The position numbers and the translations under genes were made by a program. The notes beneath the pieces were generated by a model, which had not been told where the DNA came from, did not search any database, and saw only the letters and a program-made list of their open reading frames with translations. From a virus (lineage: Duplodnaviria > Heunggongvirae > Uroviricota > Caudoviricetes), in IMG/VR virus record IMGVR_UViG_3300029719_000311, positions 1-31,209 of that record: DNA of 31,209 nt; one strand, given 5' to 3'. Position 1 is the stretch's first letter, and the number at the start of each line of letters is the position of its first letter. Of this stretch, positions 2,623 to 20,000 are shown one piece after another.

Positions 2623-2849
2623 TTTCTTTCCTCTGTTATGCCATCACCCGCGCTCACCTGGACAGTATGCAGCGGAGACTGAAGAGCCGCAATGCAGGCT
2701 TGTCGTGTTGTGAGGTAAGGAGATTTATTCTTAGTGGGATCTTTGCGTGTTGCCTGAAGACGCCCTGTGCGTATCCAGTTAATGGCAGTCGGTCTGGATA
2801 TCTTGAGAAAATGACAGGCCTCATCGAGTGTGAGGCTGTATGGCTCCAT
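2499..2849 (-). CDS. xis: Excisionase (Xis), 116 aa, overlapping the int 5' end
   Basis: Internal ATG of ORF 2499..2933 gives [31 protein letters not shown]... (excisionase-type HTH); position immediately upstream of and overlapping int; start overlaps stop of upstream ORF by 1 nt. Start codon choice uncertain. Confidence 0.65.
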
Positions 2850-3154
2850 TATTTCACCTCTTGCTGTGACATTGTTGAGAAATGGATACCAGCTCGTTGC
2901 TGCCAGACGATCCAACCGAGAGTCATATCCCATGCCATGTATTCGTTATCGCCGTTTTTTGCTCTCCGACGATCTACTAAGTCACCAAAACGCTTTTCCA
3001 TGAATAATTCATAAGCTTCGCGTTCATCTGGTTCTACTTCCAGAGATAGGAGTGCGATTTCATAAGCACGGCGCTCAATATCGTCTCGCACGTCAAGGCT
3101 GCTGATACGCTCTTTAATTTCTTTAATCAGTTCTTTGTCGGTAAAAGTGGTCAT
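2849..3154 (-). CDS. Hypothetical phage early protein (101 aa)
   Basis: ORF translationally coupled to neighbours on both sides (shared boundary bases at 2849 and 3154); acidic helical protein; function unknown. Confidence 0.5.
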   Translation of the reverse strand: MTTFTDKELIKEIKERISSLDVRDDIERRAYEIALLSLEVEPDEREAYELFMEKRFGDLVDRRRAKNGDNEYMAWDMTLGWIVWQQRAGIHFSTMSQQEVK

Positions 3155-3516
3155 TATGCTCCAGCCTCCGGTGCTTTTGGCATTACTGCCCAGTGAGTGA
3201 TATTGACGTTTTCAAGGTCCCCGACCTGAAATGTCCACTGCCATTCTCCGGTTTCTTTTTGTCCCCAGGTGTACCAGAGAGAACGCCAGCCAATTAGCCA
3301 GCCTTCTCCGTTAGCATCGAATAACAAAACACTTTCATTTGCTGGTGGCAGTTCAGTTGACACTGGTATTACTTTGTTTTCCTGTGCTGCACATTTAGCT
3401 TCAAGCGCATCGAATTTACGCACCAGGTATTCAGCATCCGTTTCATTCACTTTCAGATCTCGCGGTACACATCTCCCACGAAGAAACCCTTCCATTTCGA
3501 AAACATTCATGCGCAT
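3154..3516 (-). CDS. Hypothetical phage early protein (120 aa)
   Basis: ORF in the leftward early operon, overlaps HD-domain gene by 10 nt; Trp-rich C-terminus; function unknown. Confidence 0.5.
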   Translation of the reverse strand: MRMNVFEMEGFLRGRCVPRDLKVNETDAEYLVRKFDALEAKCAAQENKVIPVSTELPPANESVLLFDANGEGWLIGWRSLWYTWGQKETGEWQWTFQVGDLENVNITHWAVMPKAPEAGA

Positions 3517-4043
3517 TTGCGTAACTCCGATAATTCGTTAAAGCGTTCCATAAACATCCCGTAGGCATGGCCTGGAGCCAGTGGAATCACGTTGAACATC
3601 TCTGTTGCCGGGATACCTTCCAGCACAGGCCAGAAAGAGCCATCATCAAGCCCGAGATCGCGGCGTTCGGTTGCCAGCATAATGAGATCGGCATATTTCA
3701 CTGGCGTGCTCATAACAGGAGGTAACCCGTATTTCTCACGGATTACGGCGTCTATTTTTTCTTCCATCCGTTTATAGTCAGGAAGAAGTCGTTTCAGTGG
3801 TGCGGGGATGTCCTGGCAATATGCTTCTGTTGCATCATGCATTAAAGCTTCAAAAGCAAATTCCTGCGGCACCAGCTGGCTGCAAAGCACCGCATGTTGG
3901 GCGACACTGTAGAAGTGTGAAAGATGTCCTGCAAAGCGACAGATATTTGAAAGGGAAACCGCGATATCGTTAATAACGATGTCGTCTTTATTTATCCTGT
4001 CATAATAAAAATGCTTCCCGGAAAAAGTTTTAATAAATGACAT
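3507..4043 (-). CDS. HD-domain phosphohydrolase (YfdR-like), about 178 aa
   Basis: HD signature in ...HFYSVAQHAV... and ...ALMHDATEAY...; start chosen at second ATG (MSFIKTF) preceded by GGAGAA; the longer ORF could start at 4070. Confidence 0.7.
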   Translation of the reverse strand: MSFIKTFSGKHFYYDRINKDDIVINDIAVSLSNICRFAGHLSHFYSVAQHAVLCSQLVPQEFAFEALMHDATEAYCQDIPAPLKRLLPDYKRMEEKIDAVIREKYGLPPVMSTPVKYADLIMLATERRDLGLDDGSFWPVLEGIPATEMFNVIPLAPGHAYGMFMERFNELSELRKCA

Positions 4044-4099
4044 TTTGTTCTCCACGTATATGCGCTGCACCGCGCTGAATTCGGGTAAAAGGAAGCCCT

Positions 4100-4587
4100 C
4101 ACCGTCCGGCGATTATTGAGTCAATTACATTTCCATAAATGCCCCCGTAGGGGCGGTTAGTTTCTCCACAAAACAGAGAAGAACACCTGCGGTGGCAGCC
4201 GCCCGGATGGATTGGGTTATGAGCCCGTCGTCCGGTGATGCTCTTCTCTGTTTTGTAAAAAGGACGGTACCAGCCGGAAGCAAGGGTACAAACTGGTACC
4301 GCCAGGACTACACACAGCATAAAGTTGTGGTGCCGGGTGCCTCCCGGTGCCTGGCGAAGGTTGCACACCAGGCGGGTGGGTATCCACAGAAGGTCGACTG
4401 TCAGCCTCAACCTTAACCCGCGTGCGCTGAGCCGCATTCACCACAACGCTAAGGATTCTCTCTGGTTGAAAATACTTAGCTGTTATGTGCCTGCTTTTAG
4501 CCACATCAGGCGAGGTGGACCTAGTTATTCCCCAACAACAAGGATTCGGTTAATCTGGTTATCCCCAACAACGCAAAAGGAAAAGAA
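4100..4587. other. GC-rich non-coding segment with nested inverted repeats and two 16-bp direct repeats; candidate structured RNA or early-left regulatory region
   Basis: Perfect 15-bp inverted repeat ACAAAACAGAGAAGA (4168..4182 / 4242..4256) around a 59-nt GC-rich spacer; GGTACCAG/CTGGTACC inverted repeat (4266..4300); GCCCC..GGGGC hairpin (4141..4155); direct repeats GTTATYCCCCAACAAC at 4524..4540 and 4558..4572; track ORFs here overlap on both strands and lack RBS. Confidence 0.3.
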
Positions 4588-5022
4588 ATGTCCGGTAATA
4601 TCTATACGCTGTACAAATCCCACTGTGAAAATGTTGGAAAGTATCGGGGCATTGAAATCAGTGGGGTAGTGTCATCAGTCGAAATAAGCAAAGTTGAATC
4701 AAGGGCAACATTACTTACTCTTTTGGACCTTGTCTTACATGAGCACCGGAAGAAATTCGGCACTCCCTATAATCAGTTGAATGGGAAAAAGGCTCTGGTT
4801 CACCTTATTCTGATGAAGCATCACTGGATGCCAAAACAGATTAATGAGATGAAATTTGATGAACTTCTTCTTTCAATTCAGGATGAACTCACACTTGATA
4901 AAATAAGCGTAACCGCCCAGAAATTTTTAGATTATCGAGACTGGAGATCACAAATTCATCACTTTGATGATTTTGACGAAAATGAATGGGATCCTAATTT
5001 GTCTGCACAATATCTAAAGTAA
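4588..5022 (+). CDS. Hypothetical protein (144 aa), rightward gene at the sieB/N-equivalent position
   Basis: ATG preceded by AAAGGAAAAG; moderately AT-rich; orientation opposite to surrounding early-left genes; no recognisable motifs. Confidence 0.5.
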   Translation: MSGNIYTLYKSHCENVGKYRGIEISGVVSSVEISKVESRATLLTLLDLVLHEHRKKFGTPYNQLNGKKALVHLILMKHHWMPKQINEMKFDELLLSIQDELTLDKISVTAQKFLDYRDWRSQIHHFDDFDENEWDPNLSAQYLK

Positions 5023-5200
5023 CATCCTGTGATAAAACCGTGATTTCCTGATCCAGTTTTTTTAAGGAGTCTATTGTTTCCTGTCGATAAGACAGCACTT
5101 CACGAAGCTGGTTTATAGCTGCCAGCTTCTTTGTCATCCACTCATAAATTTCCTCATCTGTGTAGCCAGGCGCGACGATTTTGGGTTCTGTTTTGTGCAT
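4994..5200 (-). CDS. Hypothetical small protein (68 aa)
   Basis: Start at internal ATG (MHKTEPKIVAPGYTDEEIYEW...) preceded by AGGAG at 7-nt spacing; convergent with and overlapping the 3' end of the 144-aa gene. Confidence 0.4.
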   Translation of the reverse strand: MHKTEPKIVAPGYTDEEIYEWMTKKLAAINQLREVLSYRQETIDSLKKLDQEITVLSQDVTLDIVQTN

Positions 5201-5397
5201 TTCACATCTCCTCAAGTTATCAGTTACTTGTTGATGGGGACCAGATTGTTAAAGAGCTAAGCGTCCTGTAGGGCGCTTTTTTGTTGCTAACGAATCATCC
5301 TGGACTTCATATGCCCCAGGCGGCTACTTCGTGGGCGTCCTGCCTGTTCGTTGTTTCGCTTGGGTACATTATGTATCTCGAAGGTACATTGTCAAGT

Positions 5398-5422
5398 ATA
5401 AAAAAACCTGCCGAAGCAGGTT
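5398..5422 (-). terminator. Rho-independent terminator downstream of repressor gene
   Basis: Minus-strand hairpin AACCTGC-TTCG-GCAGGTT followed by a 7-T run, 13 bp after the repressor stop. Confidence 0.6.
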
Positions 5423-5434
5423 CATAAACATTGA

Positions 5435-6109
5435 TTAGGCTTTGATTTTGTATCTTCTTGGTTTTCCTGAGAAAATCACTGTACCAATTATAGAGCAATT
5501 ACCGTTGATCTTAATGTAAGGCTCAGGCCAGTTTGGGTTTAACGCTTTGAGATAACGCTGTGTCCCATCTTCTATCAACCTTTTGAAGGTGGTTTCGCCT
5601 GTATCGTGCATCAATGCAATAACGTCGTCACCGTGGCAGGCAGGTACTTCAGGATCGACAAAAATCATGTCTCCCGGGCGGTACTCATCAATCATTGAAT
5701 CACCTATCACCCGCAAGATATAAGTCATTTCCCCACAGGGTACAGGGCAGGGATACGTTTCTGCTGTGCTCAAATCAACCTCAGAATATCCAACTTCTTT
5801 CCATGCTCCGGCCTGTACCCATGATATGACAGGGACTAATGTGATTTGTTTATTAGTGATTGAAACATCAGGTTTTTTTGTGATGTTCGTTGTCTGGTGT
5901 TCTTGATCGAGCCATCCGACAGGCAGGTCGAAACATTTTTCGATGTGTCGTGCCATGCTGTCACCGATATTTTTAGTAGCACCATCTCCCATAAACCTGC
6001 TGGTCTGGGTTGGCTCGCGATCAATCATAGTGGCAAAGGAAGAATTCCCGCCAACACCATCTCTCAGTTTTCTGGCGTTAGACCGCCGGATGTCATGGAT
6101 TGTTTTCAT
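5435..6109 (-). CDS. Phage repressor, cI/C2-like (N-terminal HTH, C-terminal S24 LexA-type peptidase domain)
   Basis: C-terminal ...VIGDSMIDEYRPGDMIFVDPE... (S24 GDSM serine motif) plus a downstream Lys; divergent from cro-like gene with palindromic operators between them. Confidence 0.85.
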   Translation of the reverse strand: MKTIHDIRRSNARKLRDGVGGNSSFATMIDREPTQTSRFMGDGATKNIGDSMARHIEKCFDLPVGWLDQEHQTTNITKKPDVSITNKQITLVPVISWVQAGAWKEVGYSEVDLSTAETYPCPVPCGEMTYILRVIGDSMIDEYRPGDMIFVDPEVPACHGDDVIALMHDTGETTFKRLIEDGTQRYLKALNPNWPEPYIKINGNCSIIGTVIFSGKPRRYKIKA

Positions 6110-6123
6110 AACGAAATTAAAAC

Positions 6124-6194
6124 CCTTGTACCGTTAAGGTACAAGTATCTTGAAGGTTCATTTCAATCATGTAATATGTACACCGGAGGTACAT
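6124..6194. promoter_or_regulatory. OR-like operator region between repressor and cro-like gene
   Basis: 21-bp palindrome CTTGTACC-GTTAA-GGTACAAG (6124..6144) and second dyad ATGTAC-N8-GTACAT (6175..6194) overlapping the cro RBS; related GGTACATT sites downstream of cI at 5364..5395. Confidence 0.45.
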
Positions 6195-6199
6195 ATTGT

Positions 6200-6400
6200 A
6201 TGAAAGCGTATTGGGACTCTTTAACCAAAGAACAGCAGGGCGAGTTGGCCGGAAAAGTTGGCTCAACACCTGGCTACTTACGGCTGGTTTTCAATGGCTA
6301 TAAAAAAGCCAGTTTTGTGCTGGCTAAAAAACTTGAGCAATGCACGTCAGGTGCAATTACGAAATCTGACTTAAGACCGGATATCTATCCGAAAGATTAG
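6200..6400 (+). CDS. Cro-like HTH regulator (66 aa)
   Basis: ATG preceded by GGAGG; MKAYWDSLTKEQQGELAGKVGSTPGYLRLVFNG... HTH-like; divergent from repressor. Confidence 0.7.
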   Translation: MKAYWDSLTKEQQGELAGKVGSTPGYLRLVFNGYKKASFVLAKKLEQCTSGAITKSDLRPDIYPKD

Positions 6401-6431
6401 CAGAACACTTTCAATTTTTAACCACAGAACG

Positions 6432-6995
6432 ATGAGGCTAACCGTGGGTAAGCATCACTGGAAAATAGAAAAACAGCCTGAGTGGTACGTGAAAGCTGTC
6501 AGAAAAACTATCGCGGCGTTGCCGGGTGGTTACGCTGAAGCGGCTGACTGGCTCGATGTAACAGAAAACGCTTTATTCAACCGCCTTCGTGCAGATGGCG
6601 ATCAGATTTTCCCGCTGGGATGGGCAATGGTTTTACAGCGTGCTGGTGGCACTCACTTCATTGCTGATGCTGTGGCGCAGTCTGCAAATGGCGTCTTTGT
6701 GTCTCTTCCTGACGTCGAGGATGTGGACAACGCCGATATCAACCAACGCCTGCTGGAAGTCATTGAACAGATCGGCAGTTATTCAAAACAGATTCGTTCA
6801 GCAATTGAAGACGGTGTAGTGGAACCGCATGAGAAGACAGCAATTAACGATGAGCTGTACCTCTCAATTTCGAAGCTGCAGGAGCATGCAGCACTGGTCT
6901 ACAAAATCTTTTGCGTTTCAGAAAGTAGTGACGCCCGCGAGTGTGCAGCTCCGGGCGCCGTGGCGTGTCGTGACTGTGGAGAAACTAACGCATGA
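6432..6995 (+). CDS. Putative phage regulatory protein (CII/YdaT-like position), 187 aa
   Basis: ORF immediately downstream of cro-like gene; assignment by position only. Confidence 0.4.
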
Positions 6996-7330
6996 ACAGT
7001 TTAACAACACACTACCGTCGCTCGCAACTGATTGCGCTTCCTATACCGGGTGGAAAAGCGAAGGTGGAGTATTGCTATGCAGTAAATGTACCAGGTGACA
7101 GGGAAATTGTAACCCACAGCTTTGCAGAGTGGGCTGTGGGTGATTTCAACCGGCAGAAGGAGACAGTCCTTTGCGACAAGTTAACCGCTGGTTCAAAGAT
7201 CACTACGGAGTGCCCGTCAGAGTCATTCGTTGGGAGCCGGAAACACAACGGGTTATCTACCTCCGTGAAGGCTATGAGCATGAGTGCTTCAGCCCGCTCG
7301 AACAGTTTCGTTGTAAATTCAGGGAAATAG
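6992..7330 (+). CDS. Hypothetical protein, possibly frameshifted (112 aa as called)
   Basis: ATG overlaps upstream stop (ATGA) with GGAGA RBS; N-terminal half protein-like, C-terminal half low-complexity; an alternative frame 7171..7350 reads as a compact protein (see findings). Confidence 0.3.
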
Positions 7331-7339
7331 AGGTCGGTC

Positions 7340-8281
7340 ATGAGCACTAAATTAACCGGCTATGTATGGGATGGTTGCGCTGCGTCAGGCATGAAATTAT
7401 CCAGCGTGGCAATTATGGCCCGCCTGGCTGATTTCAGTAATGACGAAGGTGTGTGCTGGCCATCAATTGAAACCATTGCCCGTCAGATTGGCGCGGGGAT
7501 GAGTACCGTCAGAACGGCTATCGCACGGCTGGAAGCAGAAGGCTGGTTAACGCGTAAGGCGCGTCGCCAGGGTAACCGCAATGCGTCGAATGTTTATCAG
7601 CTTAACGTTGCGAAGCTTCAGGCAGCGGCATTTTCTCAACTGTCAGATTCTGACCCGTCAAAATCTGACGCATCAAAATCTGACCCGTCAAAATTTGATG
7701 CGTCGAAATCTGGCAAAAAAGCGGGTTTTCACCCGTCAGAATCTGGCGGGGATCCGTCAGTAAAATCAAAACATGATCCGTCAGATAAAAAAACTTCTCG
7801 TCCGGACGCTTCGCAACCGGACACGCAGACGGCTGAACAGGAGTTTTTAACTCGCCATCCTGATGCGGTTGTATTCAGCCCTAAAAAGCGCCAGTGGGGA
7901 ACGCAGGATGATTTGACCTGCGCACAGTGGCTCTGGAAAAAAATCATCGCCCTGTACGAGCAGGCCGCCGAATGTGACGGCGAGGTGGTTCGTCCCAAAG
8001 AACCGAACTGGACAGCCTGGGCAAACGAAATTCGCCTGATGTGTGTGCAGGATGGTCGTACTCATAAACAAATCTGCGAGATGTACAGCCGCGTCAGTCG
8101 CGATCCGTTCTGGTGCCGTAACGTGCTCAGCCCGTCGAAGCTGCGGGAAAAATGGGATGAGCTTTCCCTGCGCTTATCGCCGTCCGTCAGCACGTACACC
8201 GAAAAACGCGAAGACCCGTACTTCAAAGCCAGTTACGACAACGTGGACTACAGCCAGATCCCGGCAGGATTCAGGGGGTGA
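7340..8281 (+). CDS. Replication initiation protein (lambda O-like role) with origin iterons inside the gene
   Basis: N-terminal winged-helix-like region; central DPSKSDASKSDPSKFDASKS repeats encoded by tandem 15-bp DNA repeats; position after cro/cII-like genes. Confidence 0.7.
   Translation: MSTKLTGYVWDGCAASGMKLSSVAIMARLADFSNDEGVCWPSIETIARQIGAGMSTVRTAIARLEAEGWLTRKARRQGNRNASNVYQLNVAKLQAAAFSQLSDSDPSKSDASKSDPSKFDASKSGKKAGFHPSESGGDPSVKSKHDPSDKKTSRPDASQPDTQTAEQEFLTRHPDAVVFSPKKRQWGTQDDLTCAQWLWKKIIALYEQAAECDGEVVRPKEPNWTAWANEIRLMCVQDGRTHKQICEMYSRVSRDPFWCRNVLSPSKLREKWDELSLRLSPSVSTYTEKREDPYFKASYDNVDYSQIPAGFRG
7640..7793. repeat. Candidate replication origin iterons (5 tandem 15-bp repeats plus 3 spaced copies) with adjacent A-rich tract
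   Basis: Repeats of CCGTCA(A/G)AATCTGA at 15-bp period 7640..7713, further copies at 7731, 7752 and 7777; within the replication initiator gene. Confidence 0.55.
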
Positions 8282-8772
8282 GCATGAGTCTTTTGAATGA
8301 CGTTCAGAAATTCATTGAAGCCCATCCGGGCTGTACTTCCGGAGATATTGCGGATGCTTTTGCCGGTTACTCACGGCAGCGCGTTCTGCAGTCAGCAAGC
8401 AAGTTACGTCAGAGTGGGCGTGTGGCTCACCGTTGTGAAGGAGATACACGCAGACATTTCCCGCGCCTGACTGAGAGAGCGCAGGAACCGGAACCACAAC
8501 CAGTTCGTGAAACCAGACCTGTGCGCAATTTCTATGTCGGCACTAACGATCCCCGTGTGATTTTGTGCCTGACCCGCCAGGCGGAAGAACTGGAGTCCAG
8601 GGGCTTATACCGTCGTGCTGCAACCGTGTGGATGGCGGCATTCCGTGAAAGCCACTCCCAGCCAGAACGAAACAATTTTCTGGCGCGTCGTGAGCGGTGC
8701 TTACGGAAAAGCAGCAAGCGCGCTGCATCGGGTGAAGAGTGGTATCTGTCAGGGAATTACGTGGGGGCTTAA
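8278..8772 (+). CDS. Hypothetical regulator (winged-helix N-terminus; PerC-like C-terminal region), 164 aa
   Basis: ATGA overlap with upstream gene; C-terminal ...EELESRGLYRRAATVWMAAF... resembles PerC-type prophage regulators from memory; low certainty. Confidence 0.4.
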   Translation: MSMSLLNDVQKFIEAHPGCTSGDIADAFAGYSRQRVLQSASKLRQSGRVAHRCEGDTRRHFPRLTERAQEPEPQPVRETRPVRNFYVGTNDPRVILCLTRQAEELESRGLYRRAATVWMAAFRESHSQPERNNFLARRERCLRKSSKRAASGEEWYLSGNYVGA

Positions 8773-9425
8773 TGAGTAATAAATATTGCCAGGCGCTGGT
8801 GGAACTGCGGAACAAACCAGCCCATGAACTGAAGGAAGTGGGCGATCAGTGGCGCACGCCGGACAACATTTTCTGGGGAATTAACACCCTGTTTGGCCCG
8901 TTTGTTCTGGATCTGTTCACTGACGGTGATAACGCCAAATGTGCCGCGTATTACACGGCGGAAGACAACGCGCTGGCGCATTACTGGTCAGAACGTCTTG
9001 CGGAGCTTAAAGGTGCTGCCTTTGGTAATCCCCCGTACAGCCGCGCCAGTCAGCATGAGGGGCAATACATCACCGGCATGCGTTACATCATGAAACATGC
9101 CAGTGCCATGCGTGATAAGGGCGGGCGCTATGTTTTCCTGATCAAAGCTGCCACCAGCGAAGTGTGGTGGCCGGAAGATGCAGATCATATTGCTTTTATT
9201 CGCGGGCGTATTGGTTTTGAACTGCCTGTCTGGTTTATCCCGAAAGACGAGAAGCAGGTACCGACAGGAGCTTTTTTCGCTGGTGCTATTGCTGTTTTTG
9301 ACAAGACCTGGAAGGGACCGGCAATCAGCTACATCGGGCGCGATGAACTTGAGGCATGTGGTGAGGCGTTTCTGGCGCAGGTTCGCCAGCAGGCGGAAAA
9401 ACTGGTCAGGGAGATGGCGGCATGA
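8772..9425 (+). CDS. Phage DNA N6-adenine methyltransferase (Dam-like)
   Basis: Catalytic motif NPPY in ...AAFGNPPYS...; start at ATG overlapping upstream stop (TAATG), giving MSNKYCQALVELRNK... Confidence 0.8.
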   Translation: MSNKYCQALVELRNKPAHELKEVGDQWRTPDNIFWGINTLFGPFVLDLFTDGDNAKCAAYYTAEDNALAHYWSERLAELKGAAFGNPPYSRASQHEGQYITGMRYIMKHASAMRDKGGRYVFLIKAATSEVWWPEDADHIAFIRGRIGFELPVWFIPKDEKQVPTGAFFAGAIAVFDKTWKGPAISYIGRDELEACGEAFLAQVRQQAEKLVREMAA

Positions 9426-9748
9426 CGACGTTAACTCAATGCCAGCAGCAGGTGCTGGATATGCTGATTTCTTATCAGAAAGAACGTGGCTTCCCGCCAA
9501 CCAATCAGGAGGTGGCAACCATGCTGGGATACCGTTCGGTGAATGCAGCGGTGGAGCATCTTCGCGCACTGGAGAAAAAAGGCGTCATCACGATAAAGCG
9601 TGGCGTGGCCCGGGGGATAACGCTTCATACCGCGGTGAAGGACGACGACAGCGAGGCGGTCGGGATTATCCGCGCACTGCTTGCCGGTGAGGAAAACGCA
9701 AGGCTGCGTGCAACCCACTGGTTACATGAGAGGGACCTGAAAGTATGA
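9422..9748 (+). CDS. LexA N-terminal DNA-binding-domain-like protein lacking the peptidase domain (108 aa)
   Basis: LTQCQQQVLDMLISYQKERGFPPTNQEVATMLGYRSVNAAVEHLRALEKKGVITIKRGVARGITL closely parallels the LexA N-terminal winged HTH; no S24 Ser/Lys region. Confidence 0.7.
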   Translation: MTTLTQCQQQVLDMLISYQKERGFPPTNQEVATMLGYRSVNAAVEHLRALEKKGVITIKRGVARGITLHTAVKDDDSEAVGIIRALLAGEENARLRATHWLHERDLKV

Positions 9749-10134
9749 AGCTGATCCTGCCTTTTCCGCCCAGCGTGAACACGTACTGGCGACACCCCAA
9801 CAAAGGGGCGTTTGCTGGTAAGAGCCTGATAAGCGCGGCGGGGCGAAAATTCCAGAGCGCGGCGTGCGCAGCAATAGTTGAGCAGTTACGTCGTCTGCCG
9901 AAACCAACGTCGGCACCTGCTTCAGTGGAGATCGTGTTGTTTCCTCCGGATAACCGGATCCGCGATCTGGACAACTATAACAAGGCGCTGTTTGACGCCC
10001 TGACCCACGCGGGTGTGTGGGAGGACGACAGTCAGGTGAAAAGAATGCTGGTGGAGTGGGGACCGGTTATCCCGGAAGGGAAGGTCGAGATCACTATCAG
10101 TAAGTACGAGAAAACGGCGGGTGCAGCCGCCTGA
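9745..10134 (+). CDS. rusA: Holliday junction resolvase RusA
   Basis: LPFPPSVNTYWRH..., ...RDLDNYNKALFDALTHAGVWEDDSQV... match RusA conserved blocks; ATGA coupling. Confidence 0.85.
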   Translation: MKLILPFPPSVNTYWRHPNKGAFAGKSLISAAGRKFQSAACAAIVEQLRRLPKPTSAPASVEIVLFPPDNRIRDLDNYNKALFDALTHAGVWEDDSQVKRMLVEWGPVIPEGKVEITISKYEKTAGAAA

Positions 10135-10153
10135 TCAAGAGGAGAAACGAAGT

Positions 10154-10951
10154 ATGAATAATCTGATGGTCATTGATGGTATTGAAGTTCGTCGTGATGC
10201 TTATGGTCGTTACAGCCTGAACGATCTGCACAGGGCTGCTGGTTCTCTGGATAAGCATAAGCCCGCATTCTGGCTCCGCAATGAGCAAACTGAACGCTTA
10301 ATAAGCGAGTTGCAGATTTGCAACTCGGTCAATATAGCGCCAGTTAATGTCATTCGTGGTGGAAATAACCAGGGAACGTATGTCTGCAAGGAACTGGTGT
10401 ATGCCTATGCAATGTGGATTAGCCCGTCATTCCATCTGAAGGTGATCCGTACTTTTGACATGGTAACCAGCATACCGGAAAAATTATCCGGGCAGGCTGC
10501 TGACAAGATGCAGGCTGGTGTGATTCTGCTGGACTTTATGCGTCGGGAGTTAAATCTGTCTAACTCATCTGTGCTTGGGGCCTGTCAGAAACTCCAGGAG
10601 GCTGTTGGCTTACCGAATTTGGCACCGCGCTATGCCATTGATGCTCCTGCTGATGCACTCGATGGCTCAAGCCGCCCTACGCTATCATTGAGTGCACTGC
10701 TGAAGCAGTATGGTATCCGCCTTACGGCTAATCAGGCATATCACCAGATGGTGAAGCTGGGGATCGTCGAGCAGCGCGAACGATACAGCCGTACCACGAT
10801 TAACAACATCAAAAAATTCTGGTCGCTGACAGCGAAAGGCTGCATGTTCGGCAAGAACATCACCAGTCCCGCAAATCCGCGCGAGACGCAGCCGCATTTC
10901 TTCGAATCCCGATTCCCTGAGCTGTTAAAGCTGCTCGATATCGTTCATTGA
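10154..10951 (+). CDS. KilA-N domain protein (antirepressor/Bro-like), 265 aa
   Basis: Start at ATG after AAGAGGAGAA; N-terminus MNNLMVIDGIEVRRDAYGRYSLNDLHRAAG... typical of KilA-N domains. Confidence 0.6.
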   Translation: MNNLMVIDGIEVRRDAYGRYSLNDLHRAAGSLDKHKPAFWLRNEQTERLISELQICNSVNIAPVNVIRGGNNQGTYVCKELVYAYAMWISPSFHLKVIRTFDMVTSIPEKLSGQAADKMQAGVILLDFMRRELNLSNSSVLGACQKLQEAVGLPNLAPRYAIDAPADALDGSSRPTLSLSALLKQYGIRLTANQAYHQMVKLGIVEQRERYSRTTINNIKKFWSLTAKGCMFGKNITSPANPRETQPHFFESRFPELLKLLDIVH

Positions 10952-10952
10952 G

Positions 10953-12755
10953 GTGACCGTGAGAGCACTACTGACCCCTGAAATTGCCCCGCGTATGGGG
11001 ATCGTATTGTTCAGACCAGGTTCAGAGCTGATGCCCCTGTTTATGCAGGGGCGTGTCCTGCTGGAGCCTGAGCCGGAACGTTATTCATCTTTCGCCAGTG
11101 GTGCTGTTCCGGCGGCATCACAACCGCTGGCGGATGATCCTGCCGTTCGGGCCGTGTTCCGCAATGAGGCAGTGATCCGTCGTGCTGGTGGCGTGGAATG
11201 TCTTGAAAGCTGGTTACTTCGTGAAAAAGGCTGCCAGTGGCCTCATTCCGACTGGCACAGCGAGAACATGACCACAATGCGACACGCGCCGGGTGCAATC
11301 CGTCTGTGCTGGCACTGCGATAACCAGCTGCGCGATCAGTTCACGGAACGGCTGGAATCAATGGCAACGGATAACTGTGCCCGCTGGGTGTTGTCTGTTG
11401 TGCGTCGGGATCTCGGTTTTGATGACAGTCACGTTGTGACAATGCCGGAACTGTGCTGGTGGCTGGTTCGTAATGACCTGGCGGGAGCCTTGCCGGAAAG
11501 TGCAGCCCGTAAGGCACTGAGATTACCGAAGCCTGTTGTGCCGTCTGTCACCCGGGAAAGTGACCTTGTTCCTTCGGTTCCTGCCACCAGCATCATCCAG
11601 GATAAAGTGAAAAAGGTGCTGGCGCTGAAAGTGGATCCGGAGTCGCCGGAGTCTTTTATGTTACGCCCAAAACGTCGCCGCTGGGTTAACGAAAAGTATC
11701 TGGATTTTTTCAAAGGCGAGATAGGGAAAACCCATCTGGCTCAGGAGCTGTGGACGCAGATTGATAACGGTCAGCTTGCGCCTGACCTGGCTGAAATCAG
11801 GACATCCATTACGGATGTCAGCAATGAAATCACACAGACCGTCAATAAGAAACTGGAAGACCAGAGTGCAGCGATCCAGCAGATACAGAAGGTTCAGGTT
11901 GATACAAATAATAATCTGAACAGCATGTGGGCTGTGAAGCTGCAGCAGATGCAGGATGGACGCCTTTATATTGCGGGTATCGGTGCCGGTATTGAGAACA
12001 CCCCTGACGGCATGCAGAGTCAGGTGCTGCTGGCGGCGGACAGGATTGCGATGGTTAATCCTGCGAATGGCAACACAAAACCGATGTTTGTTGGTCAGGG
12101 CGATCAGATATTCATGAACGACGTGTTCCTGAAACGCCTGACGGCCCCCACCATTACCAGCGGTGGAAATCCACCGGCATTTTCCCTGACACCGGACGGA
12201 AAGCTGACCGCTAAAAATGCGGATATCAGTGGCAGTGTGAATGCGAACGCCGGGACGCTCAACAATGTCACGGTAAATGAAAACTGTACGATTAAGGGCA
12301 TGCTGGAGGCGACTCAGGTCAGAGGTGACTTCGTTAAAGCTGTATCCAAATCATTCCCGAAACAGGCTGGTACGTGGGGTAACACGGAAACACCAAACGG
12401 GACGGTTACAGTTACCATAAGCGATGATCATAACTTTGACCGTCAAATCATTATTCCGCCCATTATCTTTAACGGAATAGCGTATAGCGATCCGGGAAGT
12501 GGTAATAACCCGGGAGGTACAAGATACACGGGTTATGGTTTTGAAGTTCGCAAAAACGGTGTATTAATCGCATCCAGAGAAACTAAAGGGGCTATTCCCG
12601 GTAGCTACAGTGCGGTTATTGATATGCCGAGTGGCAGGGGAAGCGTCACTCTGGAGTTTAAGGTTTTCCATAAAGGCAATCAGTGGGCAGGTAATATCAC
12701 CGACTGTACGGTGATTGTGACCAAAAAAGCCGCTTCCGGCATCAGTATTCGTTGA
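10953..12755 (+). CDS. Chimeric ORF: N-terminal Cys/His-motif domain (DUF968-like early protein) fused to C-terminal tail-fibre J-like region
   Basis: GTG start adjacent to KilA-N stop; N-terminal about 280 aa contains CWHCDNQ; C-terminal about 300 aa is Gly/Thr/Asn-rich tail-fibre-like sequence; immediately followed by lom-stf-tfa as in the lambda J-lom-stf-tfa order. Confidence 0.55.
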   Translation: MTVRALLTPEIAPRMGIVLFRPGSELMPLFMQGRVLLEPEPERYSSFASGAVPAASQPLADDPAVRAVFRNEAVIRRAGGVECLESWLLREKGCQWPHSDWHSENMTTMRHAPGAIRLCWHCDNQLRDQFTERLESMATDNCARWVLSVVRRDLGFDDSHVVTMPELCWWLVRNDLAGALPESAARKALRLPKPVVPSVTRESDLVPSVPATSIIQDKVKKVLALKVDPESPESFMLRPKRRRWVNEKYLDFFKGEIGKTHLAQELWTQIDNGQLAPDLAEIRTSITDVSNEITQTVNKKLEDQSAAIQQIQKVQVDTNNNLNSMWAVKLQQMQDGRLYIAGIGAGIENTPDGMQSQVLLAADRIAMVNPANGNTKPMFVGQGDQIFMNDVFLKRLTAPTITSGGNPPAFSLTPDGKLTAKNADISGSVNANAGTLNNVTVNENCTIKGMLEATQVRGDFVKAVSKSFPKQAGTWGNTETPNGTVTVTISDDHNFDRQIIIPPIIFNGIAYSDPGSGNNPGGTRYTGYGFEVRKNGVLIASRETKGAIPGSYSAVIDMPSGRGSVTLEFKVFHKGNQWAGNITDCTVIVTKKAASGISIR

Positions 12756-12824
12756 AATTGTTATAACCCATATAAGGGCACCAGAAATGGTGCCTTTTTT
12801 ATTGCAGAAAAGCGAGAGGTAATT

Positions 12825-13424
12825 ATGCGTAAACTTTATGCCGCCATTTTGTCCGCAGCCATTTGTCTGGCCGTATCCGGTGCGCCTGCATGGGCATCTG
12901 AACATCAGTCCACGCTGAGCGCGGGGTATCTTCATGCCTTGACGAACGTTCCCGGCAGCGATGATCTTAACGGGATTAACGTGAAATACCGTTATGAGTT
13001 TACGGACACACTGGGGCTGGTGACGTCATTCAGCTATGCAGGAGACAAGAATCGCCAGCTTACCCGTTACAGCGATACCCGCTGGCATGAAGATTCAGTG
13101 CGTAACCGCTGGTTCAGCGTGATGGCGGGGCCGTCTGTGCGCGTGAATGAATGGTTCAGCGCGTATGCGATGGCGGGTATGGCTTACAGCCGTGTTTCGA
13201 CTTTCTCCGGGGATTATCTCCGCGTAACTGACAACAAGGGGAAAACGCACGACGTGCTGACCGGAAGTGATGACGGTCGCCACAGCAACACGTCTCTGGC
13301 GTGGGGGGCTGGCGTGCAGTTTAACCCGACCGAATCCGTGGCCATTGATATTGCTTATGAAGGCTCCGGCAGCGGTGACTGGCGTACCAACAGTTTCATC
13401 GTGGGTGTCGGTTATAAATTCTGA
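12825..13424 (+). CDS. lom: Lom/Ail family outer-membrane beta-barrel protein
   Basis: Signal peptide [24 protein letters not shown], alternating beta-strand pattern, C-terminal ...VGVGYKF; position between J and stf. Confidence 0.85.
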
Positions 13425-13488
13425 TTAGCCAGGTAACACAGTGTTATGACAGCCCGCCGGTTCAGGCGGGCTTTTTTGTGGGGGGAAT

Positions 13489-15903
13489 ATGGCAGTAAAG
13501 ATTTCAGGTGTACTGAAAGACGGCACAGGAAAACCGGTACAGAACTGCACAATCCAGCTGAAAGCAAAACGTAACAGCACCGCGGTGGTGGTGAACACGC
13601 TGGCCTCAGAAAATCCGGATGAAGCCGGGCGTTACAGCATGGACGTTGAGTACGGTCAGTACAGCGTTATTCTGTTGGTGGAAGGGTTCCCGCCGTCACA
13701 TGCCGGGACCATCACCGTGTATGAAGATTCCCGACCCGGTACGCTGAATGATTTTCTCGGTGCCATGACGGAGGATGATGCCCGTCCGGAGGCTCTGCGC
13801 CGTTTTGAACTGATGGTGGAAGAGGTGGCGCGTAACGCGTCCGCGGTGGCACAGAACACGGCAGCCGCGAAGAAGTCAGCCGGCGATGCCGGCACATCTG
13901 CCCGTGAGGCGGCAACGAACGCGAAAGCGTCGGAAACCAGCGCAGAATCCTCAAAAACGGCTGCCGCATCGTCAGCCAGTTCGGCGGCGTCATCGGCATC
14001 ATCGGCGTCTGCTTCAAAAGATGAGGCGACCAGACAAGCGTCAGCAGCGAAGAGCAGCGCCACGACGGCATCCACGAAGGCGACAGAGGCTGCTGGCAGT
14101 GCGACGGCGGCAGCTCAGAGCAAAAGTACGGCAGAATCCGCAGCAACGCGCGCCGAGACAGCAGCAAAACGGGCAGAGGATATTGCATCCGCCGTGGCGC
14201 TTGAGGATGCGAGCACGACGAAAAAGGGGATAGTACAGCTCAGTAGTGCGACTAACAGCACTTCCGAGTCACTGGCGGCAACACCAAAAGCCGTTAAGGC
14301 CGCGTATGACCTGGCTAACGGGAAATACACCGCACAGGATGCAACGACAGCACAGAAAGGGATAATCCAGCTAAGCAGCGCGACCAACAGCACGTCTGAA
14401 ACGCTTGCCGCGACACCAAAGGCAGTAAAAGCAGCCAATGACAATGCTGAGAAACGTCTGCAGAAAGATCAGAACGGTGCGGATATCCCTGGCAAAGATA
14501 CCTTTACGAAAAATATTGGTGCCTGCCGTGCCTTCGGTGGGTCAGTAAGCACAACAACAGGAAACTGGACGACTGCACAGTTTATCGAGTGGCTGGATTC
14601 TCAGGGAGCATTTAACCATCCATACTGGATGTGCAAGGGTTCCTGGTCTTATGGCAATAATAAAATCATTACTGATACTGACTGCGGTAATATTCATCTC
14701 GCCGGAGCTGTCATTGAAGTAATGGGGATAAAGTCAGCGATGACGATCCGCATTACCACACCGACCACCTCCACTGGTGGTGGAACAACTAACGCCCAGT
14801 TTACCTATATCAATCACGGAACAGATTATTCACCTGGCTGGCGAAGGGACTATAACTCCAGAAATAAGCCAACGGCATCAGAGATCGGGGCGTTACCGTC
14901 AGGTGGAACAGCAGTATCATCAGTTAATCTGGCTTCAAAAGGTCGGGTAACCGCGCTGACAGACAATACGCAGGGGGCAGCAGGTCTTGAGTTATACGAG
15001 GTGTATAACAACGGATATCCAACAGCGTATGGAAATATCATTCACCTGAAAGGGATGACAGCCGTTGGCGAAGGTGAGTTACTCATCGGCTGGAGTGGTA
15101 CAAGCGGTGCTCATGCTCCGGCATTTATTCGTTCACGACGGGATACGACCGACGCAAACTGGTCGCCGTGGGCGCAGCTTTACACCTCGGCTCATCCTCC
15201 TGCAGAGTTTTATCCAGTCGGTGCACCAATCCCGTGGCCATCAGATACCGTTCCGTCTGGTTATGCCCTGATGCAGGGGCAGACTTTTGACAAATCTGCA
15301 TACCCGAAACTTGCAGTTGCTTATCCGTCAGGCGTGATCCCTGATATGCGTGGCTGGACGATTAAGGGCAAGCCCGCCAGTGGTCGGGCCGTATTATCTC
15401 AGGAACAGGACGGCATTAAATCGCACACCCACAGCGCCAGCGCATCCAGTACGGATTTGGGGACGAAAACCACATCGTCGTTTGATTACGGAACCAAATC
15501 CACGAATAACACCGGGGCGCATACCCATAGTATTAGCGGGACCGCAAATAGTGCCGGTGCGCACCAACACAAGAGTTCCGGTGCATTTGGTGGCACGAAC
15601 ACGAGCATTTTCCCTAATGGTTATACCGCGATTTCAAATCTAAGCGCGGGGATTATGAGCACAACAAGCGGTAGTGGCCAGACTCGTAATGCAGGGAAGA
15701 CATCATCAGATGGTGCTCATACCCACTCGCTGTCCGGCACTGCTGCAAGCGCAGGCGCACATGCACATACTGTCGGTATTGGTGCTCATACGCACTCCGT
15801 TGCGATTGGTTCACATGGACACACCATCACCGTTAACGCTGCTGGTAACGCGGAAAACACCGTCAAAAACATCGCATTTAACTATATTGTGAGGCTTGCA
15901 TAA
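13489..15903 (+). CDS. stf: Side tail fibre protein Stf
   Basis: N-terminal [30 protein letters not shown]...; Ala/Ser-rich coiled region; duplicated KGI(V/I)[11 protein letters not shown](S/T)[11 protein letters not shown] segments; C-terminal His-rich GAHTHS/GAHAH repeats. Confidence 0.85.
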
Positions 15904-16487
15904 TGGTATTCAGAATGAGTGAACAACCACGGACCATAACAATTTATAATCTGCTGGCCGGAACTAATGAATTTATTGGTGAAGGTGATGCATATATTCC
16001 GCCTCATACAGGTCTGCCAGCAAACAGTACCGATATTGCACCGCCAGATATTCCGGCAGGCTTCGTGGCTGTTTTCAACAGTGATGAGGCATCGTGGCAT
16101 CTCGTTGAAGATCATCGGGGTAAAACGGTTTATGACGTGGCTTCCGGCGACGCGTTATTTATTTCTGAACTCGGTCCGTTACCGGAAAATGTTACCTGGT
16201 TATCGCCGGGAGGGGAATATCAGAAGTGGAACGGCACAGCCTGGGTGAAGGATACGGAAGCAGAAAAACTGTTCCGGATCCGGGAGGCGGAAGAAACAAA
16301 AAACAGCCTGATGCAGGTAGCCAGTGAGCATATAGCGCCGCTTCAGGATGCTGTAGATCTGGAGATCGCAACGGAGGAAGAAAACTCGTTGCTGGAAGCC
16401 TGGAAAAAGTATCGGGTGTTGCTGAACCGTGTTGATACATCAACTGCACCGGATATTGAGTGGCCTGCTGTCCCTGTTATGGAGTAA
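15903..16487 (+). CDS. tfa: Tail fibre assembly protein Tfa
   Basis: TAATG overlap with stf; ...[68 protein letters not shown]... typical Tfa N-terminal region. Confidence 0.8.
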
Positions 16488-17024: not shown

Positions 17025-20000
17025 ATGGAACCCATATCAATTACAGTGGCAACTTATGTAGCAACTAAACTTATTGATCAATTCATCTCTCAAGAAGGAT
17101 ATGGTTGTATTAAGAAAGCATTATTCCCCCAAAAAAGATATGTGGATAGATTATATCAACTAATTGAAGAGACGGCAATTGAGTTTGAAGAAACATATCC
17201 AGTAGAAAGTGGAGCAATACCATTTTATCATTCCGAACCATTGTTTGAGATGTTGAATGAGCACATCTTTTTTAAAGAGTTCCCTGACAAAGAGATATTA
17301 TTAGACAAGTTCAAAGAATATCCAAGTATCACTCCCCCAACTCAACAACAACTCAGCCTTTTTTATGAGATGTTATCATTAAAAATCAATAATTGTTCGA
17401 AGTTAAAAAAGCTACATATCGAAGAAACGTATAAAGAAAAAATATTCGATATTAATGAAGAGCTCATTCAAGTCAAACTTATTTTACGGTCTATAGATGA
17501 GAAACTAACTTTTCACTTAAGTGATGATTGGTTAAATGAAAAAAATAGTCAAGCAATAGCTGACTTGGGAGGTCGATACACACCCGAACTCAACGTAAAG
17601 CTAGAAATAGCAGAGATATTTGATGGCCTCGGTAGAACTAATGATTTTTCTAAAATATTTTATTCGCATATAGATAGCTTTCTGGTCGCTGGAAAGAAAT
17701 TACATAGTTGCGATGTAATTTCCTCAGAATTATTTGAAATAAACCAGTCCTTAAAAGAAATTTCTGATATATATCAGGAGATTAATTTTTCTAAATTAGA
17801 TGAAATCCCTATAAATAAATTTAATAACTATGTTTCTAGCTGCCAGACAGCTATTGGCGGAGCGGTATCAATATTGTGGGAACTCCGAGAAAAGTCAGAG
17901 CAAGTAGGTGAAACCAAGCATTACAGTGATAAGTATTCATCTACTCTGCGAATGCTTCGGGAATTTGACTATGCGTGCAATGAATTACGTATATTCATTA
18001 ATTCAACAACAGTGAAGTTGGCTAACAACCCATTCTTACTTCTCGAAGGAAAAGCAGGAATTGGTAAGTCTCATTTACTGGCTGATGTGATTAAAAATCG
18101 AATTGCTTCTGGGTATCCTTCACTACTCATACTAGGGCAACAACTTACTTCAGATGAATCTCCATGGTCACAAATCTTCAAGAGATTACAGCTTAAAATC
18201 ACTTCTCGTGAATTCCTAGAAAAACTGAATTTATATGGCAAAAAAACAGGAAAAAGAGTCTTAGTTTTTATTGATGCTATTAATGAAGGTAATGGAAATA
18301 AATTCTGGAATGACAATATTAACAGTTTTGTCGATGAAATCAGATGCTTTGAATGGCTTGGTCTGATAATGTCAGTCAGAACAACATATAGAAATGTAAC
18401 AATTTCACATGAGAATGTTGTGCGAAATAATTTTGAAATTCATGAACATATTGGATTCCAGAACGTTGAGTTGGAAGCGGTTAGTCTATTTTATGATTAT
18501 TACAATATTGAGAGGCCTTCATCTCCTAACCTTAATCCAGAGTTTAAAAATCCTCTATTTCTTAAGTTATTGTGTGAAGGCATTAAGAAAAATGGTTTAA
18601 CCAAAGTGCCTGTTGGATTTAATGGGATTTCAAATATTTTTAACTTTTTAGTTGAAGGGGTAAATAAATCATTAGCATCGCCAAGAAAATATGCATTCGA
18701 TCCCAGTTTTCCTCTTGTTAAAGATGCTCTCAATGAAATCATAAAATTCAAATTAGAGATTGGTCGTAATAGTATTTCACTTAAAGATGCTCACTCAGTG
18801 GTTCAATCTGTAGTTAATGATTATGTTGCTGATAAAACCTTCCTCAGCGCCTTGATTGACGAAGGATTATTGACTAAAGGCATAGTGAGAAATGATGATA
18901 ATTCTACTGAGGAAGTAGTTTATGTGGCTTTTGAAAGGTTTGATGATCATTTAACTGTTAATTTTTTATTAAATGATGTTGAAAATATCGAAAGTGAATT
19001 TAAGCCTGATGGTCGTCTGAAAAAATATTTTCATGATGAATGTGATTTTTATATAAAATCGGGAATAGTAGAGGCGTTGTCTATTCAATTGCCAGAAAGG
19101 TATGAAAAAGAGCTTTATGAATTTCTGCCGGAGTTCAGCAATAATCTTAAATTACTAGAAGCCTTTATTGATAGCTTGATATGGCGCGATATTAAGGCTA
19201 TTGATTTCGAAAAAATTAGACCTTTCATCAATGAACATGTTTTTAAATTTAAAGATAGTTTTGATCATTTCCTCGAGGCAGTGATCTCTATTTCAGGTTT
19301 AGTTGGCCATCCCTTTAATGCTAATTTCTTGCATGATTGGCTAAAAGATTATTCTTTGGCAAATCGAGATTCGTTTTGGACTACAGAACTTAAATATAAA
19401 TATAGTGAAGACTCAGCATTTAGGCATCTAATCGATTGGGCATGGGCCAGAACAGATAAAAGCTTTGTTTCGGATGAGTCAATCGAGCTAGTTGCAACTA
19501 GTTTATGCTGGTTTTTAACTTCTAGTAACCGAGAACTTCGAGATTGCTCAACTAAGGCTTTAGTGAGTTTACTCGAGCCAAGAATTCCTGTATTGAGAAA
19601 AATAATTGATAAGTTTTATGGTGTAAATGATCCTTACGTTTGGGAAAGAATATTTGCAGTTGCATTAGGCTGTACATTGCGAACTGATAATATTAAAGAA
19701 CTAAAATATTTAGCCGAAACTGTTTACCAAAAGGTATTTTGTTCTAAGTATGTGTATCCAAATATATTACTTAGAGATTATGCTAGAGAGATTATTGAAT
19801 TTGCTAATCATCTTGGATTGGAACTTGAAAGCATTGAATTATCCAAGACTAGACCACCCTACAACAGCATTTGGCCTGACAAGATTCCTTCAAAAGAGGA
19901 ACTAGAGTCCCTTTATGATAAAGAACCTTATCGGGAACTCTGGAGCTCTATTATGGAAGATGGTGACTTTTCACGATATACTATTGGAACAAATTATAAT

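Follow-up and report, generated by a model that had tools for sequence, protein, structure and literature searches.

A textbook analogue of late-gene loss by internal deletion is the prophage CPS-53 (KpLE1) of Escherichia coli K-12 MG1655, where the truncated methyltransferase gene yfdM adjoins the tail-fibre pseudogene yfdL; tail-fibre assembly genes are kept and the late genes are gone. An intact model for the locus described here is the prophage at the proA/tRNA-Thr site of E. coli ATCC 43886 (NZ_CP024256.1, 1886501-1931735; locus L001), which retains a 23.5-kb interval from Q to J and in which DUF968 (329 aa) and the tail-tip gene J (1165 aa) stand as two separate, complete genes.

Here we analyse a viral DNA stretch of 31,209 nucleotides (IMG/VR record IMGVR_UViG_3300029719_000311; hereafter the window) that carries a lambdoid element at the same proA/tRNA-Thr site. 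It shares with the ATCC 43886 prophage the integrase, the yfdP-T early-left genes, the early-right gene order (O-like, PerC, Dam, LexA-like, RusA, KilA-N, DUF968) and a right arm of J, lom, stf, tfa and Avs2 (97-99.6% DNA identity), and it shares with CPS-53 homologous early genes (yfdP, yfdQ, yfdR, yfdS, yfdT and yfdN, the last encoding PerC). A long open reading frame (ORF) follows the KilA-N gene. Very probably, this ORF is the scar of a deletion of about 23.5 kb that joined a truncated early gene to the 3' end of J.

Results

A lambdoid prophage remnant with both attachment sites

The following features of the element frame the ORF.

1369-1445, + strand: tRNA-Thr(CGT), a thrW-type integration site (ARAGORN)
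1399-1445: attL core, the 3' 47 bp of tRNA-Thr and an exact repeat of 21863-21909
1459-2622, - strand: tyrosine integrase, retained (Pfam Phage_integrase, E = 3e-48; collinear with L001)
5435-6109, - strand: repressor of LexA/S24 type, retained (Pfam Peptidase_S24)
10121-10951, + strand: KilA-N gene (Pfam KilA-N, E = 3e-26)
12825-13424, + strand: lom, Ail/Lom outer-membrane protein, intact (Pfam Ail_Lom, positions 1-199 of 199, E = 4e-119)
13489-15903, + strand: stf, side tail fibre, ORF intact (Pfam phage_tail_N, Phage_fiber_2 and Collar)
15903-16487, + strand: tfa, tail-fibre assembly gene, intact (Pfam Caudo_TAP; 100% amino acid identity to L001 tfa)
17025-21479, + strand: Avs2 (AVAST type 2) anti-phage cargo (PADLOC Avs2, 1752 bits; RefSeq annotation in relatives)
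21863-21909, + strand: attR core, 47-bp copy of the tRNA-Thr 3' end (exact repeat; matches in relatives stop at 21909)

The exact 47-bp att repeats at the tRNA gene, with the integrase adjacent, bound the element, and attR is its right end. In addition to attL, attR and int, the remnant keeps the repressor/cro/cII region, a replication gene, lom, stf, tfa and Avs2. Its lom product is 96.5% identical in amino acid sequence to that of L001, and its stf is a shorter mosaic allele (804 aa versus 1092-1133 aa in relatives; blastp against the stf products of L001 and L002). The Avs2 gene, located between tfa and attR, has a G+C content of about 33% by composition profile.

Collinearity with L001 and Pfam scans of the other ORFs revealed no Q, lysis, packaging, head or tail genes in the lambdoid element. 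The initial annotation, made from the sequence alone, had described the region as lacking Q and any lysis, terminase, portal, capsid or tail-tube gene while retaining lom, stf, tfa and cargo; both statements hold, and int and both att sites are also present. Judged from gene content, the element would be a lambdoid prophage unable to make particles or lyse the cell.

An ORF composed of two gene fragments

Two nucleotides beyond the KilA-N stop codon begins an ORF of 600 aa (10953-12755, + strand) that is free of interruption, in agreement with the initial annotation, which placed it directly after KilA-N. The true start is likely GTG at 10959, giving 598 aa, because GAGG lies 5 nt upstream, relatives have the homologous start annotated, and database copies of the fusion protein are 598 aa long. 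The ORF and its surroundings comprise the following parts.

10953-11698, + strand: 5' fragment of a DUF968 / PHROG_96 ("HNH endonuclease") gene (megablast, Pfam, PHROG)
11697-11698, + strand: deletion junction, a 2-bp TA microhomology inside a Tyr codon (blastn overlap, three-way alignment)
11699-12755, + strand: 3' fragment of the tail-tip gene J, codons 815-1165 of 1165 (megablast, Pfam, structure match)
12774-12797, + strand: terminator-like hairpin and T-run after the J stop (consensus scan and sequence), which may be the native end of the J transcript

Aligned separately, as the initial annotation proposed, each half matches its own family. The left half (window nt 10953-11698, query nt 1-746) is 100% identical by megablast to DUF968 genes in several E. 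coli and corresponds to codons 1-247 of 329 in reference numbering, or roughly the 5' three-quarters of the gene. DUF968 belongs to the nin region, where it is the last gene before Q, so the earlier assignment of the N-terminal part to an early-right gene was sound. A full-length match to the DUF968 or PHROG_96 profile is absent from the fusion protein: the left half covers PHROG_96 positions 1-252 of 334 (1-334 in an intact relative), and Pfam DUF968 is matched at aa 162-254 over profile positions 2-97 of 171 only (2-171 plus HNHc_6 in the intact relative). DUF968 proteins combine an Orf-like domain with a C-terminal zinc/His-Me finger (PMC4118853, PMC5714182). That finger (CACCG...HH...CRKHHDELH) lies within the C-terminal 82 residues removed by the deletion; its motif (CxxC...HH...CxxHH) occupies reference residues ~255-300, past the breakpoint at residue 247, and is missing from the fusion. 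The Cys/His motif noted earlier at the N-terminus thus exists as a cluster, CQWPHSDWH...CWHC, but is not the recognised DUF968 finger.

The right half (window nt 11697-12755, query nt 745-1803) constitutes the last 352 codons of a lambda-type J gene and is 100% identical by megablast to gpJ of strains PM4 and CUVET16-819, with the frame kept, as expected from the J-like C-terminus in the initial annotation. Pfam matches to Phage_Tail_Tip (aa 307-435, E = 4e-31) and Ig_GpJ_C (aa 464-599, E = 4e-26) accompany a match to solved lambda gpJ (PDB 8iyk_J residues 838-1131, E = 3e-90), and both the central tail-fibre domain and the receptor-binding domain are present. Intact J carries FNIII-A_GpJ, Phage-tail_3, Ig_J and Ig_J_second at aa 86-818 on the Pfam map. 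The fusion is devoid of the hub, FNIII and Ig domains; its J part starts at residue 814, just 4 residues short of where the second Ig-like domain ends. Downstream, lom, stf and tfa follow in the order reported earlier, with Pfam matches at 12825-16487. On sequence grounds, a 600-codon frame made of two segments 97-100% identical to known genes cannot be a chance product.

The junction and the deleted interval

Comparison with an intact relative located the breakpoint, the check that the initial annotation had proposed. By blastn, window 10348-11698 corresponds to L001 12128-13478 (97.0% identity) and window 11697-13916 to L001 36966-39186 (97.5% identity); the left high-scoring pair ends at 11698 and the right one starts at 11697, an overlap of 2 nt. 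This is a single discontinuity, with breakpoints 23,489 bp apart that delimit L001 13479-36967. Codon 247 of the 329 in the DUF968 gene is joined to codon 814 of the 1165 in J (DUF968 ...NEKY followed by LDFF... of J). Each break cuts a Tyr codon, and at the same phase; the fusion is therefore in frame, and translation from the DUF968 start reaches the natural J stop. The in-frame deletion from an early gene to the 3' end of J proposed in the initial annotation is therefore recovered on the ATCC 43886 prophage.

In L001, the interval holds Q, two cargo genes between Q and lysis, holin/lysozyme/spanin, cos/terminase and portal, followed by protease-capsid, head-tail and tail genes, tape measure, L/K/I and J codons 1-813, the 5' 70% of J. 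What was deleted, and exactly how much, is modelled on L001, not on a direct ancestor, and the two prophages differ in their immunity region and in stf, which is longer in L001. When a closer intact ancestor was sought, the 100% matches of each half were found in unrelated prophages at other loci, and the ATCC 43886 prophage therefore stays the model.

The scar is very probably the product of one illegitimate-recombination deletion within a lambdoid prophage at the thrW-type tRNA-Thr site of E. coli. The likeliest route is a double-strand break repaired by microhomology-using alternative end-joining, which in E. coli relies on microhomology, RecBCD and LigA (PMC11297215); gyrase-type illegitimate recombination is another candidate.

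The same scar could also have formed by joining of two co-resident lambdoid prophages, or by homology-facilitated illegitimate recombination. In the latter case a J-lom-stf fragment, either incoming or broken, would have been held by homology at its right side and attached by end-joining at its left. We consider these routes unlikely, albeit less so than the other alternatives weighed below. The best DNA matches of the two halves do lie in different prophages of different strains, which leaves some room for a two-step or inter-prophage origin, and the two junction-bearing haplotypes differ in stf. Moreover, J-side ends in other chimeras recur at one spot with varying left partners, a pattern that hints at fragment-end-driven events in that region of J. 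Against this, one thrW prophage matches the window collinearly to the left and to the right of the junction at the identities given above, att sites bound one element, and the junction here (L001 36968) sits 125 nt from the recurrent spot. Outcome and significance are unchanged either way.

A candidate hot spot in J

The recurrent end lies at J nt ~2317, between TACTGGA and TAGCCGCCAGTA, at a 6-bp inverted repeat with a 7-nt spacer, and in a list of 120 proteins it is used by at least six independent chimeras, whose left partners differ; the window junction is 125 nt downstream. It is conceivable, but quite improbable, that deletions inactivating E. coli prophages, the one in the window included, preferentially have their right-hand end in the 3' third of J. 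If so, the process would leave the complete J fibre/receptor-binding module and the lom-stf-tfa-cargo segment in place, and could reflect either a sequence-directed break or selection for keeping a host-range cassette. Copy-number probes around the spot hit 10,638 places on its left and 10,729 on its right in 5,426 genomes; J copies truncated there make up at most ~1% of J copies by this measure, too few to count for or against the hot spot.

The idea that right ends of thrW-family deletions cluster in J was rejected at the DNA level: the ends are spread over L, K/I, J, lom and the stf-tfa region, and those inside J are at nt 634, 1465, 1551 and 3085. Chi is not supported as an explanation of the hot spot or the window junction. 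J has no canonical Chi, the hot spot is 2 mismatches off, and a closer Chi-like site at L001 36378 goes unused. Nor is a cosN explanation of either site supported, the hot spot being 4 mismatches from lambda cosN.

Expression and function of the fusion protein

J is anchored in the tail by its hub domains. The fusion protein has neither these nor the DUF968 His-Me finger, and no tail genes are left in the element; hence it is most likely a functionless pseudogene, in frame by chance. From lambdoid gene order, the retained repressor would keep the early-right operon off in a lysogen, and the fusion ORF would consequently be silent; any expression would be predicted only upon derepression of that operon.

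Could the chimera instead be a selected functional protein, its J trimeric fibre/receptor module combined with an Orf-like DNA-binding part to serve in exclusion, as a decoy or in another lysogen role? The fibre and receptor-binding module is complete and is a stable fragment in solved structures, the reading frame is preserved, and the allele is found in several samples, ERR912036 among them. We nevertheless judge this very unlikely. Any deletion that fuses two genes will keep the frame by chance one time in three, and there is no evidence for selection because all copies of the fusion protein are identical in sequence. The protein has no signal peptide and no tail partner genes, DUF968 is cut mid-profile, and sister remnants carry no J at all or frameshifted remnants.

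Occurrence of the junction

No place in 5,426 complete E. coli genomes or in 50,697 phage records holds both halves or covers at least 80% of the query. Among 5.8 billion proteins, only P0001 and P0002 span both halves; they are one and the same 598-aa protein, set apart solely by the letter given to the start codon. All other protein matches cover 59% (J) or 42% (DUF968) of the query, and no single family aligns collinearly over the ~600 aa; such an alignment is what the initial annotation had named as contrary to a fusion. Exact look-ups matched P0002 but neither the 600-aa translation nor P0001, and scanning JGI metagenome contigs and GTDB representative genomes for the exact 34-mer across the junction yielded 0 matches.

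These absences, together with the origin of database copies largely from metagenome or automated assemblies, are what would be expected if the fusion were an assembly artefact, a chimeric contig of two phage regions. Such an origin is extremely unlikely. An independent human-gut metagenome contig (ENA assembly) shares this junction and is 99.97% identical, differing at 4 positions over 12,958 bp, which argues that the junction is not an artefact; the fusion protein is present on 5 contigs plus one JGI record; a 2-bp overlap is too short to cause a k-mer graph misjoin; and finished genomes hold comparable deletion scars. Least probable of all is a natural multidomain DUF968-J family, a reading that has the uninterrupted ORF in its favour and nothing beyond, and that is effectively refuted by full coverage in only the two entries of one 598-aa protein, by truncation of both domains relative to their profiles and by absence of the architecture from the phage records.

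Discussion

In annotations, the 598/600-aa "protein" is best labelled a DUF968::J fusion pseudogene that marks a deletion, not a new tail or nuclease protein. Understanding of mechanism is unchanged by this scar, and its importance is mainly for annotation. Such chimeras seem to have entered PHROG profiles already as contaminants: the J C-terminus matches families labelled "terminase large subunit" and "head maturation protease". For the thrW lambdoid prophage, particle-forming genes have been lost repeatedly and what stays is the left arm with the Avs2 defence gene, which fits general prophage degeneration with useful cargo retained (PMC6379469). The window is ordinary prophage decay, one more documented step for this prophage.

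Related in this respect are thrW/Avs2 sister remnants in clinical E. coli (SCEC020001, EC19, EC25, PT109, Ec-U11 and 23CRST014), which have the same site, left arm and Avs2, each with an internal deletion of part or all of the late region. Their junctions differ from the one described here (terL is joined to L or to K/I, DUF1441 to J nt 1465, the O-like gene to J nt 634 or to lom, and PerC to the stf-tfa region), and they are mostly annotated as frameshifted or partial pseudogenes, whereas the window has one clean in-frame ORF. CPS-53 differs in lying at argW rather than thrW, in having breakpoints in a methylase and a tail-fibre gene instead of DUF968 and J, in forming no long fused ORF, and in carrying an O-antigen glucosylation operon as cargo in place of Avs2. 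Similar in form are chimeras in public protein sets, such as TerL::J (P0109), Nu1::J (P0027), YmfL::J (P0007), O-like::J (P0113) and ABC-transporter::J (P0116). In these lambdoid deletion scars, too, an unrelated upstream gene is in frame with the 3' third of J and is followed by lom, but the left partners are different and six of them resume J at codon 773/774 versus 814 here.

Structure and origin of the fusion ORF

As the initial annotation had described, an uninterrupted ORF lies directly after the KilA-N gene and is followed by lom, stf and tfa, with Pfam confirming these genes:

10121-10951, KilA-N gene (Pfam), stop 2 nt before the fusion ORF
10953-12755, + strand, fusion ORF, uninterrupted, 600 aa
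12825-13424, lom (Pfam), 3' of the fusion ORF
13489-15903, stf (Pfam), after lom
15903-16487, tfa (Pfam), after stf

GTG 10959 is the likely start, given a GAGG 5 nt upstream, the homologous start annotated in relatives, and database copies of 598 aa. Pfam matched DUF968 to residues 162-254, covering only positions 2-97 of the 171-position profile, and placed Phage_Tail_Tip at residues 307-435 and Ig_GpJ_C at 464-599. A terminator-like hairpin lies 3' of the J stop codon.

When 5,426 complete E. coli genomes were searched by megablast, DUF968 genes matched nt 1-746 of the ORF and gpJ 3' ends matched nt 745-1803, each with identity up to 100%, and none of these genomes held both halves in one place. 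The 50,697 phage records searched split the ORF likewise, with phi458 and cdtI among the J-part matches, and none covered at least 80% of it. An intact lambdoid prophage of E. coli ATCC 43886 (L001; NZ_CP024256.1, 1886501-1931735) shares the proA-tRNA-Thr site and gene order of the window element. Its left part reads int, yfdP-T, immunity, O-like, PerC, Dam, LexA-like, RusA, KilA-N, DUF968 (329 aa) and Q; nuclease and methyltransferase cargo genes, lysis, DUF1441/terminase, portal, protease-capsid and tail genes follow, and the right end comprises J (1165 aa), lom, stf, tfa and Avs2. By blastn, window 10348-11698 corresponds to L001 12128-13478 (97.0%) and window 11697-13916 to L001 36966-39186 (97.5%). 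Three-way alignment located the junction at a 2-bp TA overlap within a Tyr codon, TAC on the DUF968 side (...NEKY) and TAT on the J side (...SGY|LDFF). The two breakpoints share codon phase and are separated by 23,489 bp of L001, an interval absent from the window. The fusion therefore consists of DUF968 residues 1-247 and J residues 814-1165. Pfam, megablast and the junction alignment thus support the proposed in-frame joining of an early-gene N terminus to the J C terminus, and blastn supports removal of the late region by deletion.

Among 5.8 billion proteins searched, only P0001 and P0002 aligned over the full length; all other matches cover 59% (J) or 42% (DUF968) of the protein, so no single family spans it collinearly. 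Each is 598 aa long and matches the window protein exactly from GTG 10959 onward, except for the start-codon letter of P0001. P0002 is present on five contigs; the one shown, from human-gut metagenome ERZ918268, is 99.97% identical to window 959-13916 across the junction and diverges further on within stf. Misassembly is disfavored because this independent assembly carries the same 2-bp junction. Exact scans for the junction in JGI metagenome contigs and GTDB representative genomes returned no match, indicating a rare allele.

Mechanism of the deletion

Two base pairs shared by sequences that are otherwise unrelated are the signature of illegitimate recombination. Gyrase-mediated illegitimate recombination is one route. 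Alternative end-joining, dependent on microhomology, RecBCD and LigA, is the best-documented route in E. coli according to PMC11297215, which cites Chayot et al. 2010. Alternative end-joining at the 2-bp microhomology is a candidate for the DUF968::J junction, and so is the gyrase-mediated route. An in-frame outcome has a prior of 1 in 3, and scars in sister remnants are mostly out of frame.

Modules are evidently swapped among prophages: the J half has its 100% match in a prophage near zinT of strain PM4, and the DUF968 half has its own in strain C4, in a contractile-tailed prophage at the ybhC site. A search of relatives for each half found no direct intact ancestor of the window prophage. 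A two-step or inter-prophage origin appears improbable and, if true, would leave the significance of the scar unchanged.

Canonical Chi octamers occur in the retained DUF968 fragment at window 11184-11191, 11455-11462 and 11584-11591 (two +, one -), the nearest 107 nt to the left of the junction. The rightward-active Chi (CCACCAGC, + strand) is absent from L001 17190 to the end of the stretch examined, including the whole late region.

Domains lost and retained

The intact DUF968 protein contains the whole Pfam profile (2-171) plus HNHc_6 at residues 251-308; PHROG_96 "HNH endonuclease" matches it over positions 1-334 and the fusion fragment over only 1-252. The missing segment, CACCGKPADDPHHLIGH...CRKHHDELH, is the zinc/His-Me finger assigned in the literature to DUF968, where it follows an Orf-like domain (PMC4118853, PMC5714182). 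Intact J carries FNIII-A, Phage-tail_3, Ig_J and Ig_J_second within residues 86-818. Because its J portion begins at residue 814, the fusion keeps only the central fiber and the receptor-binding domain, which match solved lambda gpJ residues 838-1131 (8iyk).

In the PHROGs scan, the J fragment (window 11700-12755) also matched phrog_15 "terminase large subunit" (positions 1052-1271) and phrog_94 "head maturation protease". This suggests that these profiles contain built-in deletion chimeras such as TerL::J, which could mislead annotation.

State of the element

An exact copy of the 3' 47 bp of tRNA-Thr at 21863-21909 shows that both att sites, attL and attR, are intact. Int, the S24 repressor, a cII-like gene and the O-like replication gene are still present, and lom, tfa and Avs2 are intact. 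In L001, cos lies upstream of the DUF1441/terminase genes and within the deleted interval. With cos and the late genes lost, the remnant is predicted from gene content to be unable to be packaged, build particles or lyse the cell; it might excise. Within the repressed early-right operon the fusion ORF occupies the distal end, so the lysogen is not expected to express it.

The stf gene (window 13489-15903) is an intact, shorter mosaic allele of 804 aa versus 1092-1133 aa (L001 38759-42160; related locus L004 from 12531), closely conserved only in its N-terminal ~145 and C-terminal ~260 aa. The junction-sharing metagenome contig carries a longer stf; the change in stf therefore came after the deletion or took place independently of it. 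Avs2 (AVAST type 2; 1,484 aa, ~33% G+C) occupies window 17025-21479 between tfa and attR. The immunity module (window 4155-6415) is unlike L001 5198-8183: it encodes an S24 LexA-type repressor (5435-6109) and an ECs1072-family gene (4588-5022), whereas L001 has an XRE-type repressor.

A P4-like satellite (window 21910-31209) lies in tandem directly after the attR copy of tRNA-Thr:

22004-23263, integrase
24210-24500, AlpA-like gene
25959-26702 and 26699-27250, two Psu-family genes
27247-27528, Ogr/Delta gene
27923-29200, Drt3a, DRT type 3 defense pair, low G+C
29191-31209, Drt3b, same pair, low G+C, runs off the window

Recurrent J breakpoint in other chimeras

In 13 of the 120 listed protein matches, the J C terminus is preceded by an N-terminal part of foreign origin or by an internal J deletion; these represent eleven distinct architectures, the window's own protein included. 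With the register carefully checked, J resumes at residue 773/774 in at least six independent chimeras: YmfL::J, Nu1::J, TerL::J, tape-measure-region::J, J184::J and J558::J (proteins P0007, P0021, P0022, P0027/P0115, P0109, P0117; loci L012 7181-7182, L013 ~6504, L015 6383-6388). Four more resume at residues 723, 750, 754 and ~765, one at 328, and the window's protein at 814. At the nucleotide level, three of the six join at L001 36841-36846, within TACTGGA|TAGCCGCCAGTA, with 2-4 bp microhomology. This spot is a 6-bp inverted repeat with a 7-nt spacer (L001 36837-36857; J nt ~2311-2331). Random illegitimate recombination does not yield one constant right end joined to varying left ends. Tests of Chi-like and cosN-like causes were unconvincing. 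By flanking probes, at most ~1% of J copies are truncated here. The window junction falls outside the spot, 125 nt downstream.

Decaying relatives at the thrW site

The thrW/Avs2 prophage occurs in other complete genomes with different internal deletions. Their ends are scattered, and the left arm and Avs2 are retained in all those examined; Avs2 is kept regardless of other deletions.

Deletions in sister remnants (L001 coordinates)
SCEC020001, 22048-32851, terL to L
EC19, 20209-33843
EC25, 19666-35990, ends in J
PT109, 9318-35159, O-like gene to J, with additional J deletions
Ec-U11, 9343-38337, O-like gene to lom
23CRST014, 10544 to ~42598

PT109 (L003 9318) and Ec-U11 (L007 9143) represent two independent large deletions with left ends 25 bp apart in the O-like replication gene (L001 9317 and 9342), which may lie near origin iterons. 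Four related strains (L002, L003, L005, L006) share an out-of-frame 784-bp J deletion (L001 36827-37610), its left end 16 nt upstream of the recurrent breakpoint.

Collectively, these data confirm the observation and, with small corrections, support the interpretation of the initial annotation. In this defective prophage the fusion ORF is a deletion scar of an ordinary sort, a further instance of a well-known kind. A classical analogue is K-12 CPS-53: its yfdP-T and yfdN genes are homologous, and its truncated methylase yfdM adjoins the tail-fiber pseudogene yfdL; the pattern in both elements fits the general prophage degeneration described in reviews (PMC6379469).
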